From Somniosus microcephalus (taxonomy: Eukaryota), in assembly GCA_052327205.1 (NCBI GenBank), contig CM126224.1:29078001-29142000 (forward strand): a stretch of DNA of 64,000 nucleotides. The letters run 5' to 3'. Below the pieces are notes generated by a model that was not told where the DNA came from, made no database searches, and worked only from the letters and a program-made list of their open reading frames with translations. Shown in pieces: positions 16,093 through 48,736 of this stretch. Every line of letters begins with the position of its first letter. Position 1 is the first letter of the stretch. A program made the position numbers and the translations under genes.

Positions 16093-16579
16093 TAATGACT
16101 TTAACATCAGTGAAATTGTACTTTCCATCTAGCAGTAGGACTACACTTTAATTTTTTCCTATTCCTTTGTGAACTGGCAGTGGATCTCGGAGCAGGAATA
16201 CGGCGTAAGATAATACTGGCAGGGGAGACTCACAATTTATTAGAACCTTAGCAGAGAAAAGACTGATAAAATGAGAATGCTCTGCCTCAATTAAATACTT
16301 TGCACAGTAACCTAACTGAGAATGGTGGAGGCCGCCACACATTTAGAGAGTGGACTGGGGTGTCAGCTCAGATTCCAACATGTGTTCAACAGGACAAACT
16401 AAGTATTGTAGCCATTCTACTGCTGGACAACATCAGTTGTGAAACATTAGGACCACCAAAGATTTGCCTACAAACTTCCAACAGGATGAAATTTTTTTTT
16501 TTTACTTGTATAGTATTCCATACATATTGTCACAACACATCCCTCCCTGGTACATAGATTTGGAAGGACTTGAGCAAAT

Positions 16580-16699
16580 CTAGCACCAGACAAACTCTGT
16601 CTTAGGCTCCTCGGTGTCCATGTGCAGGATTAGATAGGACAAGAACTGAAAAAGATTTTGCCAAAGCAACATTGAGCAGAAGAAAGAAAGGTCGCTTAC
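16580..16699 (-). CDS. Intron read-through alternative C-terminus, CRB1-B-like (hydrophobic segment + acidic tail)
   Basis: In-frame continuation past the donor gives VSDLSFFCSMLLWQNLFQFLSYLILHMDTEEPKTEFVWC*. The WQNLFQxLSYLIL motif matches the human CRB1-B tail as recalled. AATAAA on the minus strand at 16236-16241. Confidence 0.82.
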   Translation of the reverse strand, partial: VSDLSFFCSMLLWQNLFQFLSYLILHMDTEEPKTEFVWC

Positions 16700-16826
16700 A
16701 TCAAGCTCGCACTGTTCGCCTGCGAAATTGGCTCCACAAATGCATTCAAACTTGTTGACCAGGTCCTGGCAGGTCCCTCCATTCTGGCAGGGGTTTGGGT
16801 CACACTCATTGACTTCTTGTTCACAT
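16700..16826 (-). CDS. CRB2: Crumbs-family penultimate exon (127 bp; last EGF)
   Basis: ttttttttag|A TGT GAA CAA ... GAG CTT GAT|gtaagc; CEQEVNECDPNPCQNGGTCQDLVNKFECICGANFAGEQCELD; phase 2 to 0. This frame is not in the ORF track. Confidence 0.93.
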
Positions 16827-24652: not shown

Positions 24653-24741
24653 CTGTGAACAGCCACAAAAATAGAAGATACATTAAGTTAAGTTATCTCA
24701 TTGAAACCTGCGCTGTTGATTCATCCCCGCCTTTGGATCCC

Positions 24742-25270
24742 TTCCACAACCTCCCCTCCCGCAACCTCCCCTCCGCAACCTCCCCCTCCGCAACCTCCCC
24801 CTCCGCAACCTCCCCCTCCGCAACCTCCCCCTCCGCAACCTCCCTTTCCGCAACCTCCCCCTCCGCAACCTCCCCCTCCGCAACCTCCCCTCCCGCAACC
24901 TCCCCTCCCGCAACCTCCCCTCCCGCAACCTCCCCTTCGCAACCTCCCCCTCCGCAACCTCCCCCTCCGCAACCTCCCGTTCCACAACCTCCCCTCCACA
25001 ACCTCCCCTTCCACAACCTCCCCTCCGCAACCTCCCCCTCCACAACCCTCCCCTTCCACAACCTCCCCTTCCACAACCTCCCCCTCCAGCAACCTCCCCC
25101 TCCAGCAACCTCCCCTCCAGCAACCTCCCCTCCCGCAACCTCCCCTTCCACAACCTCCCCTTCCACAACCTCCCCCTCCACAACCTCCCCCTCCACAACC
25201 TCCCCTTCCACAACCTCCCCCTCCACAACCTCCCCCTCCACAACCTCCCCCTCCGCAACATCCCCTTCCT
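24742..25270. repeat. 15-bp minisatellite (caacctccccctccg)n
   Basis: About 35 tandem variant units; explains the spurious ATSPS/QPPPP/GEVAE ORFs. Confidence 0.95.
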
Positions 25271-25542
25271 TACACAAGGATCTGCTTTTGAAGAAACAAA
25301 GATCTGTGCAACTAACGGTTGGTATATTTGGAACCAACTGCCTCCAGTTTGGTTAATGTTTTTGATGGAAATACCCACCCATGTGAGGAACTGCCAAATT
25401 ACATTGGCTGAATTGTTATATTATAACCCAAAGTTCTACTGATATGAAGAAAAGGCTGCAGTCCAATAAGTTGCTTTAAGGGCACCTGAATCTTTTTGCA
25501 AGGCTTTGTGAAAAGCCGCCCTGGTTTTAATAAAGCTACGCA

Positions 25543-31997: not shown

Positions 31998-33384
31998 CAG
32001 ACCAAAGCTGCAGCTATGTGCATGGTACTTCCCTGATGACTTTATTCGCCACATTCTCTTGCCTTGTGTTCCAGGCCACTTGTAAAATACAATCTGCTTT
32101 CCTATTCACAATATAAAACCGTTCTCTCACTTTTCTCAATTTCTGTTGGTTAACAACCTCAGTGACTGGCAAGCTACTAATGATTTTTACTCATTACAGT
32201 TCAATTCCTGTTCTTTACAGAGCCTGTTATCTGTCAATTTGTTTTTTAGCTAAAAATGGCAAAACAGAAAAGGTTTTCTTTGAGTAAAAGAAATTACCTC
32301 GATTTTGCCGTTATTTTGCCTATTATTTTTAACCTGATGTGTGTTTTTTTTGCTATAATCAGGATGGTGTGATCACTGAAAGTAAATAATAAAAAAAACT
32401 ATTAACAGCTATGTATCCTCATTGGGCAGTTGAAGCACATGCAAAAAAAAAAGTTTGTAAAGTAAACAACCATTCCTGGAAGTGCTTTGGGAATCTCCCA
32501 GTTAATTCTTTGGACTCAAATAATAATTTTCAGCTGGAAAAGAGGAAGAAGCTTTAAATACAAAAATCCATGTTACTATTTCATAAGAGCTAAAGGGAAT
32601 CTACTAATCAACATTCTCTTGTTTTTTTCCCCCCTAATAAACAATGTAAACCGTTTTTTATCACAGGTGATGTTAGCTGCTGCTGGGTGTAGTGGCTCCA
32701 CAGCTGACCCACAAAGCACCATTGCCAGTTTGGGTATCTTCATGATGCCAAAGGCTTCAAAGCTGCCCAATTAAGAATGTTCCAGTGGAAGTGGAGTCCT
32801 GTAATGATGCCCTCACACCACACATATGTGCAATAAAAAGGGTCTTTGGATTCCCAATTACTCTCCTACAAGCCTACGGAGAGTGACGCCAGGAAGGTAT
32901 TGTTACAGGGTGGAGGGAGGGTGGATGTGTCCAGTGGTTGGTATAATGCTGCTAATACAGTCCGCTTATAGTGGGTGCGTTGGATGGTAAAATGATCTAT
33001 GGTTGTAGAAATTAAACAGTGGCCCCAGACACCCTCCAGAGGATCCGGAGTGCATCATTAAAAGTTACAAAGCTAAAGTAAATCCAAGTGTGTTAAAGGT
33101 AGCATCACATGACAGATGCTGGAGGCTGAATCAAATAAACTGCTAAAAAAAAAGTTTGAACAATTAATTTGAGTTTAATGTACTTCAAAAATCGCCTTAT
33201 TAAATGGAGCTTGAAACTTCCGTGTTAATTTTTGAAAGGCGGCAGCTGCAGTTCGGGAGCTTAAAAAATTGACAAGCACATATTTTAGAGGGAAGGCGTT
33301 AACAACATGTGTTTTTCTGCAGAAAATAGTTCGTGAAAACTTAGTCTAACAATACCCACTGATTTCTCCACCTGTGTACCTGGC

Positions 33385-35108
33385 CACCTCTCTCCCCCTC
33401 CCCCTCCCTCCCTCTCTCTCCCCCCTCCCACCCTCCCTCCCCTCCCTCTCTCTCCACCCTCCCTCCCCTCCCTCTCCCACCCCCTTCCCTCCTCCTCTCC
33501 CTCCATCTACTCCCTCCCTCCCCTCTCTCCCACCCCCTTCTCCCCCTCCCTCCCCTCTCCCCCCTCCCTCCCCCCCTCTCCACCCCCCTTCCCCCTTCCT
33601 CCCTCTCCCCCCTTCCTCCCCCTCTNNNNNNNNNNNNNNNNNNNNNNNNNNNNNNNNNNNNNNNNNNNNNNNNNNNNNNNNNNNNNNNNNNNNNNNNNNN
33701 NNNNNNNNNNNNNNNNNNNNNNNNNNNNNNNNNNNNNNNNNNNNNNNNNNNNNNNNNNNNNNNNNNNNNNNNNNNNNNNNNNNNNNNNNNNNTCTCCCCC
33801 ACCCCCCTCTCCCACCCCCCCTCCCTCGCTCTCTCCCACCCCCCTCCTCGCTCTCTCCCACCCCCTCCGTCCCCCTCTCCCACCCCCCTCTCCCCACCCC
33901 CCTCTCTCCCACACCCCCTCTCCCTCGCTCTCTCCCACCCCCTCCCTCGCTCTGTTCCACCCCCCCTCCCTCGCTCTCTCCCACCCCCTCCCTCGCTCTC
34001 TCCCACCCCCTCCCTCGCTCTCTCCCAACCCCCTCCCTCGCGCTCTCTCCCACCCCCTCCCTCGCTCTCACCCACCCCCCTCGCTCTCACCCACCCCCCC
34101 TCGCTCTCTCCCACCCCCTCGCTCTCTCCCACCCCCCTCCCTCCCCCTCTCCCACCCGCCACCCCCCCCTTCCCCCTCCCCTCTCCCAACCCCTCCCTCC
34201 CCCTCTCCCAACCCCCTCCCACCCCCCTCCCTCCCACACCCTTCCTCCTATCTCCCACCCCCCTCCCTCTCTCCCCCTCCCTCCCTCCCACACCCTCCTT
34301 CCCACTCCCTCTCTCTCCCCCCTTCTCTCCCTCCCTCTCTCCCCCCCCTCTCTCTCTCTCTCTCTCCCCCCTCCCTCCTTCTCCTCTCTCTCTCTCTCTC
34401 GCCCTCCCTCCCACCTTCTCTCCTCTCCCTCCCCACCTTCTCCCTTCTCCCTCCCCTCCCCCCCTTCTCCCTCCCCCTCCCCCCCTTCTCCCTCCCCCTT
34501 CTCCCTCCGTTCTCCCCCCCTCCCTCCCCCCTTCTTCCCCCTCCCTCCCTCCCCCCTTCTTCCCCCTCCCCCCTTCTCCCCCTCCCTCCCCCCTTCTTCC
34601 CCCTCCTCCCCCCTTCTTCCCCCCTCCCTCCCCCCCTTCTCACCCCCCTCCCTCCCTTCTTCCCCCCTCCCTCCCCCCTTCTTCCCCCCTCCCTCCCCCC
34701 TTCTTCCCCCTCCCTCCCACCTTCTTCCCCCTCCCTCCTCCTCCCCCTCCTCCCCTCTCCCTCCCTTCTCCCTCACCCCCCTTTCTCTCTCTCCTTCTCC
34801 CCCTCTCCCCTTCCCCCCTTTTCCCCCTCCCTTCTCCCCTTCNNNNNNNNNNNNNNNNNNNNNNNNNNNNNNNNNNNNNNNNNNNNNNNNNNNNNNNNNN
34901 NNNNNNNNNNNNNNNNNNNNNNNNNNNNNNNNNNNNNNNNNNNNNNNNNNNNNNNNNNNNNNNNNNNNNNNNNNNNNNNNNNCCCTTCCCCCTTCTCCCC
35001 TCTCTCTTTCTCCCCTCTCCCTCCCCCCTTCTCCCCTCTCCCCTCCCCTCCCCCCTTCTCCCCTCTCCCTCCTTTCTCCCCTCCCCCTCCCTCTCTCTCC
35101 CTCCCTCT
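33385..35108. repeat. C/T-rich low-complexity tract with two assembly gaps (N runs)
   Basis: Almost pure polypyrimidine on the + strand; N runs near 33626-33792 and 34843-34982. Confidence 0.95.
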
Positions 35109-35850
35109 AGACAGAAACCGCCACTGCTGTTCGCGCTGTAGCACTGACGACTGCAACCTCTTTTATTGTGATTAGTCCAAAATGACTAAATACAGTTTCT
35201 TATATTTTGCCACTGAAATGTCAGGATGCTTTAGATGATTTCAAATGCTCTCCCTCAGGAACAAAAGTGCAAAGAACTTCCTGAATTGCCCGATGGAGCC
35301 GACGTGGTGAATATGTTGTGATTGATTTCTATGGTGATGGTAAATGGTTATCATTAATTGCCCAGTATAGACGGTTGCCTGCCATTAGCATGGGCGCTAT
35401 AAGTGGTGGGGACTGTAATGTAAAAGTGCCTTTTTAACTGCATTTTATATTAATTACCCGAGTGTTTTTTCACCAAAGATTAGCCAGCCCTCCCCCAGTT
35501 AAATGTTCAGAGGTACCAGGTCCAGACCTGTACCGGCCAGTCACACCACTCCAGTCTGAAAAGTTGCCTTAATATCTACAAACTAAATCCCGATGGAGAA
35601 TCTAAAGTGGAAGTATAATAACGTCTTCGGTATCGCACTCGGGAGTAGAATAATCCTACATTAGTACACACTTTACCCTGTTCTTTGATCATATTTTTTG
35701 AAGAGAGATTGGGTGAATCTTGTGCACATTGTTTGGAATGGAAGTCTGCATTAAGCACTGCCATGTAAACAGAGGTTCTATTTACCTTTCCTCAATAATC
35801 TGCCCAAACAACAACCTTAAAATAGCATTATCTACTGCACCAGTGTGAAA

Positions 35851-37950: not shown

Positions 37951-38886
37951 CGTGAAGGCACAAGGGACCTGCATATGGCCGGAAACAATCGCACTTATAG
38001 TTCGTCCACAGATCCACACACTTCCCATTACTGTTACATGGGTTCTGACGGCACCAGTTTGTCCTTTCACAGCCAAGTGTAAAACTCCATGCCATATTTT
38101 CTGAAATTGTTTGTGGCAATATAAGACTCTTATCAATTTCCAAATCCTGAAAGCAACCAGTAAAATGATCCTGAATTGAAAGGTACGTTCCTGGGTAGCC
38201 ACCAATGTGCGTTGTCCTAAATGAATCCAGTGAAGGAAGGGTAGCCGCACTAATGTGCTTCGAGTCTGAGCAAGTGTCGTTTGGACAACTAGGATGAGAT
38301 AAGTTTACCAGGAGGTCTTTCCCCAGAAGAACCGTTAACTGATGCCACTCACCATCATTAACTTGATGAATGAATGTAATGCTAATTATCTGACCATTTA
38401 TCACAGCTATGGACATTAGCTGGCCGCTATAAAGTTGAATATGTATGTATTCATCGAGTAGATCTCCTCGATAGATTAATAGCACATTTGGTATGGTTGT
38501 CCTAAAGCGTAGACTGATGCTAATTGGCTCATCATCTGCAGCTCTCCTGCTCTGATTACCATCTGGCATTTGTACAATCACATAGCCGCTGATTAAGGAG
38601 AACGTTGTTGAAGTTGAACAAGTAGCATCATAAAAGCCAGGAGGACATTTGCAGATGTAGCTGTGAGTGTTATCCACCAAGTTTGGGATGCACGTTGCTC
38701 CATTGTGACAGCTGTGCTCAAGACAGCCAGCCAGTTGAATTGAACAGTTCTTTCCTCCCCACGTGACACCATCTTCATCCATTGGGGGGCAATGGCATGT
38801 GTAGTCTGCAATCACATCTTTACAGGTGCCTCCATTTTCACAAGGACTGTTCTCGCATTCATTGATATCAACTTGACATATCACCC
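37951..38886 (-). CDS. CRB2: Crumbs-family internal exon (936 bp; 2 EGF + laminin G1 + EGF)
   Basis: ttttttcctctcag|GG GTG ATA TGT ... CTT CAC G|gtaagc; ORF 37853-38884 with SLRFRTT, VNDGEWH and FTGCFQDL laminin-G motifs; phase 1-1. Confidence 0.95.
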
Positions 38887-48684: not shown

Positions 48685-48736
48685 CTGTAATGAGAAAAAG
48701 TCCATGAAAGAACACCTGAGAAAGGAAAGATTTCAT
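48685..48736 (-). CDS. Putative alternative first coding exon (signal peptide) of a short CRB1-B-like isoform
   Basis: accacaATG AAA TCT TTC CTT TCT CAG GTG TTC TTT CAT GGA CTT TTT CTC ATT ACA G|gtactg = MKSFLSQVFFHGLFLIT-G. The phase-1 donor joins the 38886 acceptor in frame (...LITGVICQVDINEC). A at -3. Confidence 0.72.

Follow-up and report, generated by a model that had tools for sequence, protein, structure and literature searches.

A CRB1-B-type read-through tail in a shark CRB2 gene, likely inherited from before the CRB1/CRB2 split

The closest described system is CRB1-B, the photoreceptor isoform of the blindness gene CRB1, which ends by read-through of the donor of the last EGF exon into a tail of about 40 residues, without FERM- or PDZ-binding motifs (extracts of Ray et al. 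2020, PMC7335077, and of PMC12859255). In human, the CRB1-B-specific 3' segment corresponds to c.4005+1 to +126, i.e. read-through of the exon 11 donor, and the 5' segment is an internal first exon of 52 bases, about 7 kb before exon 6, in the intron preceding the first laminin-G exon (extracts of PMC12859255). According to the sections of PMC7335077 that were available, CRB1-B is a membrane protein in mouse, found in the membrane fraction and at the plasma membrane of cultured cells; it is the most abundant CRB1 form of the adult human retina, and its tail has no known partner, and the isoform is regarded as CRB1-specific. A related human CRB1 isoform of 1376 residues, AAL10681.1, carries the full ectodomain plus 41 residues from the same read-through and is described as putatively secreted, for CRB1 only, in the extract of PMC5380682. 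The B form is given for CRB1 only in the available parts of three reviews (PMC11129452, PMC8657784, PMC5380682). A search of the open-access literature returned no paper on a B tail in CRB2, and the term "crb2-b" occurred in none.

We analyzed a stretch of 64,000 nucleotides of Somniosus microcephalus, hereafter the window, whose crumbs gene lies on the minus strand. A shark crumbs protein maps there as ten exons, from 60722 to 4905, with 74-96% identity (tblastn); the 5' end of the gene is beyond the window. The upstream exons, which encode EGF repeats and three laminin-G domains, occupy 21485-60725 (74-89% identity per exon to shark CRB2, tblastn): exons 1-3 in the window lie at about 60725-60582, 58939-58748 and 55637-55512, exons 4-6 at about 38886-37952, 30485-29850 and 28488-28306, and exons 7-8 at about 24659-23784 and 21601-21485. 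The last EGF exon, equivalent to CRB1 exon 11, is at 16700-16826 and ends with a phase-0 donor, GTAAGC at 16699, common to all endings of the gene. A first-pass annotation of the window had proposed that ignoring this donor gives a CRB1-B-type C-terminus. Reading on from the donor GT yields exactly the 39 residues it quoted, then TAG at 16582-16580 (tail at 16580-16699), and by sequence the tail is devoid of FERM- and PDZ-binding motifs, as it had stated. The AATAAA that it placed about 340 nt after the stop is present 338 bases 3' of it (16241-16236, minus strand) and is, by its motif, a candidate intronic poly(A) signal. These two features are frequent by chance: at least 39 codons stay open after 20 of the 87 GTAAG sites in the window, two of the gene's eight other donors stay open for 55 and 46 codons, and AATAAA is present in 41 of 182 tiles of 345 bases. 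Because each is thus expected about one time in four, the open frame and the signal are weak evidence by themselves; both were dropped as arguments for the tail, whose case rests on conservation.

The peptide aligns significantly with CRB1-B tails, which had been singled out beforehand as a point on which the reading could fail. In BLASTP, 26 of 35 residues are identical to the tail of P0210, a bird protein named CRB1 (E 3e-14), and 24 of 30 are shared with a bird CRB1 read-through ORF, for which the best of 100,000 shuffles reached 13. In the same genome, the CRB1 locus (G000:C3:261525467) matches the EGF plus the B tail with 63% identity over 81 aa (E 2e-26); among the best 4 of 91 genome matches it is the one other locus matching EGF and tail together, the third and fourth being EGF only. 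A profile built from the two shark tails retrieved 24 proteins, 23 of them with the tail, among 1.84 billion representatives, and all six long proteins fall with CRB1 in the tree. Since this database consists of representatives at 50% identity, which can hide CRB2 copies, the absence of CRB2 among the matches is weak evidence. The mouse CRB1-B epitope printed in the extract of PMC7335077 matches the end of the same tail family (P0229). No match to the tail was found in PDB or Pfam; a word-index search of long proteins with the tail alone gave one candidate and no match, and was uninformative. The most divergent B tail found is an ENA ORF (P0247, 11/30 identical to the window), where Gln replaces the Val normally encoded by the donor GT. 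By analogy, the window form would be a homologue working like CRB1-B; it is not CRB1-B itself, because the gene is CRB2 and CRB1 has its own B tail on C3. It differs in being encoded by CRB2, in its drifted acidic end and in ending in Cys.

The CRB2-like identity proposed at first pass is upheld, and phylogeny does not turn the gene into CRB1. By sequence comparison the window gene is CRB2, since a separate CRB1 exists on C3, the window groups with CRB2 in trees, and a DENND1A-type exon lies downstream. Among the best 120 of 417 vertebrate matches to the third laminin-G exon, sharks come first (up to 90%), followed by named CRB2. In trees of two large exons (about 600 columns), C3 joins tetrapod CRB1 (100/99, 100/100), whereas chondrichthyan CRB2 is where the window falls (100/99). 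In an ingroup-only tree a single branch (SH-aLRT 100) parts 17 CRB2 rows, with the window, from 11 CRB1 rows, with C3. With invertebrate outgroups CRB2 monophyly is unresolved in two of three trees and has an SH-aLRT of 91 in the third, from which 10 of 34 rows were dropped (13 in another). One protein named CRB2 by one source, P0246, was rejected as such; it falls with CRB1 in the tree. DENN exons lie downstream, on the opposite strand and tail to tail, at all three crumbs loci (C23, C3 and C31). The one on C23, at 28.806 Mb, has 34 codons and is 33/33 identical to DENND1A and 31/33 to DENND1B; being short, it was given modest weight. Crb2-Dennd1a linkage is conserved in tetrapods (extract of PMC3100342).

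Sequence comparison shows that the 39 codons at the start of the intron are under protein-level constraint. The conservation in other chondrichthyans on which the first-pass annotation depended was found in a chimaera: the Callorhinchus milii CRB2 model XP_007907240.1 (P0156), from the orthologous gene, ends in the same tail, with 25 of the first 28 residues and 28 of 37 overall identical to the window. The laminin-G exons of this model are 49-64% identical to the window, and A1, one of the alternative last exons described below, 88%. Chimaeras and sharks separated about 400 million years ago. The model is an automatic annotation, replaced by a version.2 (P0153) that ends in A1; the literature search returned no paper on it. 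Between the window and its own CRB1, 9 of 30 tail codons are identical, 13 differ synonymously and 8 non-synonymously, with 8, 3 and 19 differences at the first, second and third positions; the UTRs past the two tails align no better than shuffles. Three tetrapod CRB2 read-throughs (bird-type ORF P0172, turtle P0257, Xenopus P0272) encode unrelated peptides and, judging from these sequences, have lost the tail. No bony-vertebrate CRB2 with the tail was found among the stored proteins or in the tail profile search.

The tail had been announced as a third C-terminus of the locus, and two more last exons in the same phase do follow the EGF exon, both on the minus strand. Exon A1 (5123-4902; sequence and RNA contigs) encodes a transmembrane helix and a CRB2-type cytoplasmic tail with FERM and ERLI motifs, ending in ERLI. 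Exon A2 (3862-3641; sequence and RefSeq isoform P0121) encodes a transmembrane helix and a CRB1-type cytoplasmic tail, also ending in ERLI. RNA contigs of a related shark place A2 within the A1 3' UTR; the two would accordingly share one mRNA end, with the acceptor deciding between them. RefSeq CRB2 isoforms of sharks, amphibians, reptiles and birds have both ERLI tails and are annotated without a B ending. A set of 188 stored CRB2-type proteins, from which invertebrate and unrelated rows and those named CRB1 had been removed, has 132 that end in A1, 41 in A2, one in B (an automatic model) and 14 with some other ending. The CRB1-B read-through and the presence of A1 and A2 in RefSeq models were already known.

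The CRB1 gene on C3 has the same layout: its B tail is followed by an exon of A1 type at 261546629 and one of A2 type at 261547086, so that the order B, A1, A2 is common to CRB1 and CRB2 of this genome. In a 64-column tail tree, position rather than gene decides where an A exon falls: A2 exons join the canonical CRB1 tails (97/94), A1 exons come together (88/82), and CRB3 stands beside the A1 of CRB1 (100/95). A topology with all CRB2 tails together is rejected by the AU test (p-AU 0.016). As a side observation, shark CRB1 thus has two ERLI last exons (G000:C3:261546629-261547268; L011, L012), the first of which is closest to CRB3 (62.5% over 64 residues). No A1 ending was seen among 38 stored bird and caecilian CRB1 proteins, and neither an EGF exon nor a B tail was found in the 90 kb preceding the CRB3 exon of C31. 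A tblastx search of the last introns, aimed at a nested CRB3-like unit, was swamped by LINE matches. From the shared order and the clustering by position, the triple ending likely predates the CRB1/CRB2 split, in line with the age first proposed for the B tail alone. The simplest history would be one ancestral gene with B, A1 and A2, followed by reciprocal losses: cartilaginous fishes would have kept all three endings in both genes, tetrapod CRB2 would have lost B, and bird and caecilian CRB1 models are without A1. From the three DENND1-flanked loci, the split would date to a vertebrate genome duplication.

RNA of a related shark was examined for use of the tail. Two contig sets join exon 21601-21485 to the EGF exon and this to A1, skipping the tail; the donor at 16699 is thus spliced to A1 in this shark. 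No transcript using the tail was seen in the related-shark RNA contigs, whose tissues are unlabelled. A contig of depth 6 in a third run covers 16600-15935, about 300 bases past the AATAAA; other pieces of the intron have a similar depth (2.6-5.75). No contig of X9 or X14 covers 16601-16700, but a filter drops some records from these sets, and the gap carries no weight. Raw RNA reads of X21 and X22 reached no depth over the EGF exon either, and are uninformative on the tail. A break of the X9 contigs at the donor (depth 31.4 in the exon, 24.5 in A1) was considered as a sign of read-through and dropped, because a contig starting at acceptor 12811 (depth 5.75) explains the second path. The first 30 letters of that contig are unaligned, as are those of the A1 contig, and their source is inferred. 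This acceptor, a good one, opens a single-copy cryptic exon at 12811-12674 (minus strand) with 45 in-frame codons and a hydrophobic stretch; it weakly resembles the end of laminin-G 1 (E 0.2), perhaps by chance. It is possibly a fourth, minor ending. Another piece of the intron, 12293-12167 (minus strand), is covered by one RNA contig and corresponds to the last exon of a basking-shark RefSeq CRB2 isoform (P0135); its frame in the window stops after 9 codons.

The conserved core of the tail (16616-16699) is predicted to form a helix of 28 residues. AlphaFold places one helix directly after the EGF (residues 43-70 of the model), with pLDDT 86-96 over residues 51-70. Its 19-residue Kyte-Doolittle hydropathy is 1.36, against 3.1-3.2 for A1 and A2, and CRB1-B tails are equally marginal (1.2-1.6). 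The helical moment is high. Q14, N15, Q18 and S21 form a polar stripe, which suggests a helix partner in the membrane. All 16 aligned tails have Q14, Q18 and S21, which by helical angles lie on one face. In both CRB2 copies the acidic DDEPxxEWG-like motif known from CRB1-B tails has drifted; the end of the window tail is still acidic and one residue longer, without the WG of CRB1 tails.

Several other readings of the locus were weighed. The true CRB1 orthologue on C3 (100/99), the DENND1A-type neighbor, an A1 tail with 92% identity to that of chimaera CRB2 across 64 columns and the rejection of a shark-only duplication (AU test, p-AU 2e-5) make it highly improbable that the window gene is CRB1 or a recent shark duplicate of it, whose tail would then be ordinary; in that direction point the several shark records named "crumbs homolog 1-like", the presence of the CRB1-type exon A2 and a topology test with distant outgroups that does not reject a grouping of the window clade with CRB1 (p 0.14). 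That gene conversion or exon transfer brought the tail from CRB1 to CRB2 in early cartilaginous fishes we judge very unlikely. It would fit CRB2-type tails known from two chondrichthyans only, the six long profile matches falling with CRB1, the unrelated read-throughs of the three tetrapod genes, and a chondrichthyan two-gene tail clade that the AU test on the short tail tree leaves standing (p-AU 0.27). Yet the shark's own CRB1 tail (22/30) does not come nearer to the window tail than bony-vertebrate ones do (24/30 and 25/30), and the same holds for the adjoining EGF (24/42 versus 23/42); on these sequence comparisons conversion is not favoured. The 19 of 30 third codon positions that differ and the same ancient layout shared by the A1/A2 pair also speak against copying.

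The tail may also be ancestral without serving as a protein end, either as a silent relic in CRB2 or as a conserved DNA or RNA signal. Its drifted cytoplasmic motif, the lack of a transcript in the related-shark contigs and its loss in tetrapod CRB2, where it is dispensable, agree with this; but the 25 of 28 residues common with the chimaera, above the level of the laminin-G exons, the codon-position pattern against CRB1, which indicates protein selection, and flanking UTRs not conserved between the paralogues leave it quite unlikely. Unlikely to a lesser degree is that the form is made but its helix serves as an amphipathic anchor at the surface or binds a protein, the product being peripheral or secreted, which would fit an ancestral origin as well. 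Low hydrophobicity, the high helical moment and the invariance of the Q, Q and S of the stripe in all 16 tails favour such a helix, together with the human 1376-residue form having long been called putatively secreted (extract of PMC5380682); the membrane location of mouse CRB1-B (extract of PMC7335077) and a predicted helix that would be long enough for a bilayer oppose it.

We therefore retain as likely that the last EGF exon of shark CRB2 reads into a conserved CRB1-B-type tail, which would derive from a single pre-duplication crumbs gene and would still be used as a third protein form, CRB2-B; use of the tail by CRB2 is a prediction by analogy. In some cells, probably photoreceptors, cleavage and polyadenylation in the 11.6-kb intron would beat splicing, as an analogy with mouse CRB1-B suggests. 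The EGF exon would then be extended, and the protein would end in the 28-residue membrane-associated helix and a short acidic end. CRB2-B would still present the adhesive EGF/laminin-G ectodomain at the surface but be cut off from PALS1-type PDZ and FERM partners, and the polar stripe may contact a helix partner in the membrane. An internal promoter (candidate first exon at 48736) probably goes with the tail, in which case CRB2-B would have about 1000 residues. Comparison of two tail copies that separated long ago shows which residues are key: the Q/N/Q/S-stripe helix has been held, the acidic end less so. Conservation of the helix directs mutagenesis and variant reading to a region outside diagnostic panels (extract of PMC8657784). 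The tails used to distinguish CRB1, CRB2 and CRB3 seem to be alternative exons of a single ancestor that were shared out after duplication, which would make crumbs tails a clean case of isoform subfunctionalisation. This division may also help explain why tetrapod CRB2 would not substitute for CRB1-B.

The candidate internal first exon lies at 48736-48685 (minus strand). It consists of ATG, 17 hydrophobic codons and one base before a donor, i.e. 52 coding bases, in phase with the exon at 38886; in length and intron it corresponds to the first exon of CRB1-B (as given in the extract of PMC12859255). This frame ranks second of 49 ATG-to-donor frames, and first of 14 after a filter chosen afterwards. 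CRX-like sites near it number one in 600 bases, for a background of 1.6. A similar top candidate is found in CRB1 on C3 (G000:C3:261446819, L020); it ends in the same I-T-G|GT as that of the window. Two Xenopus tropicalis CRB2 models (P0267 and P0274, 1013-1014 residues) have a hydrophobic first exon of 17 residues in the corresponding intron, and their starting junction is that of the CRB1-B-type proteins of birds and teleosts; they differ from the window form in ending in A1 or A2 ERLI tails, not in B. Zebrafish Crb2b-sf is likewise a short form with an internal promoter, starting in intron 7 (extract of PMC7044448), the correspondence being drawn from exon order. By analogy with CRB1-B, we lean towards the frame at 48736 being an internal first exon. 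A broader scenario, whose chances we see as evenly balanced, is that the first vertebrate crumbs gene was a switchboard of two promoters and three tails (B, A1, A2) that predated the CRB1/CRB2 duplication and was probably built with the vertebrate photoreceptor. Cartilaginous fishes would still operate it in both paralogues, with a so far undescribed photoreceptor CRB2-B among its products, and mammalian CRB1-A, CRB1-B, CRB2 and CRB3 would be its partitioned remains.

Other elements of the locus were recorded. Long low-complexity purine/pyrimidine tracts occupy 24700-25350 and 33340-35170 of the window, the former abutting the acceptor of the laminin-G 3 exon. The introns contain many LINE-like reverse-transcriptase fragments, and a DZF exon is present at 29.6 Mb on C23.
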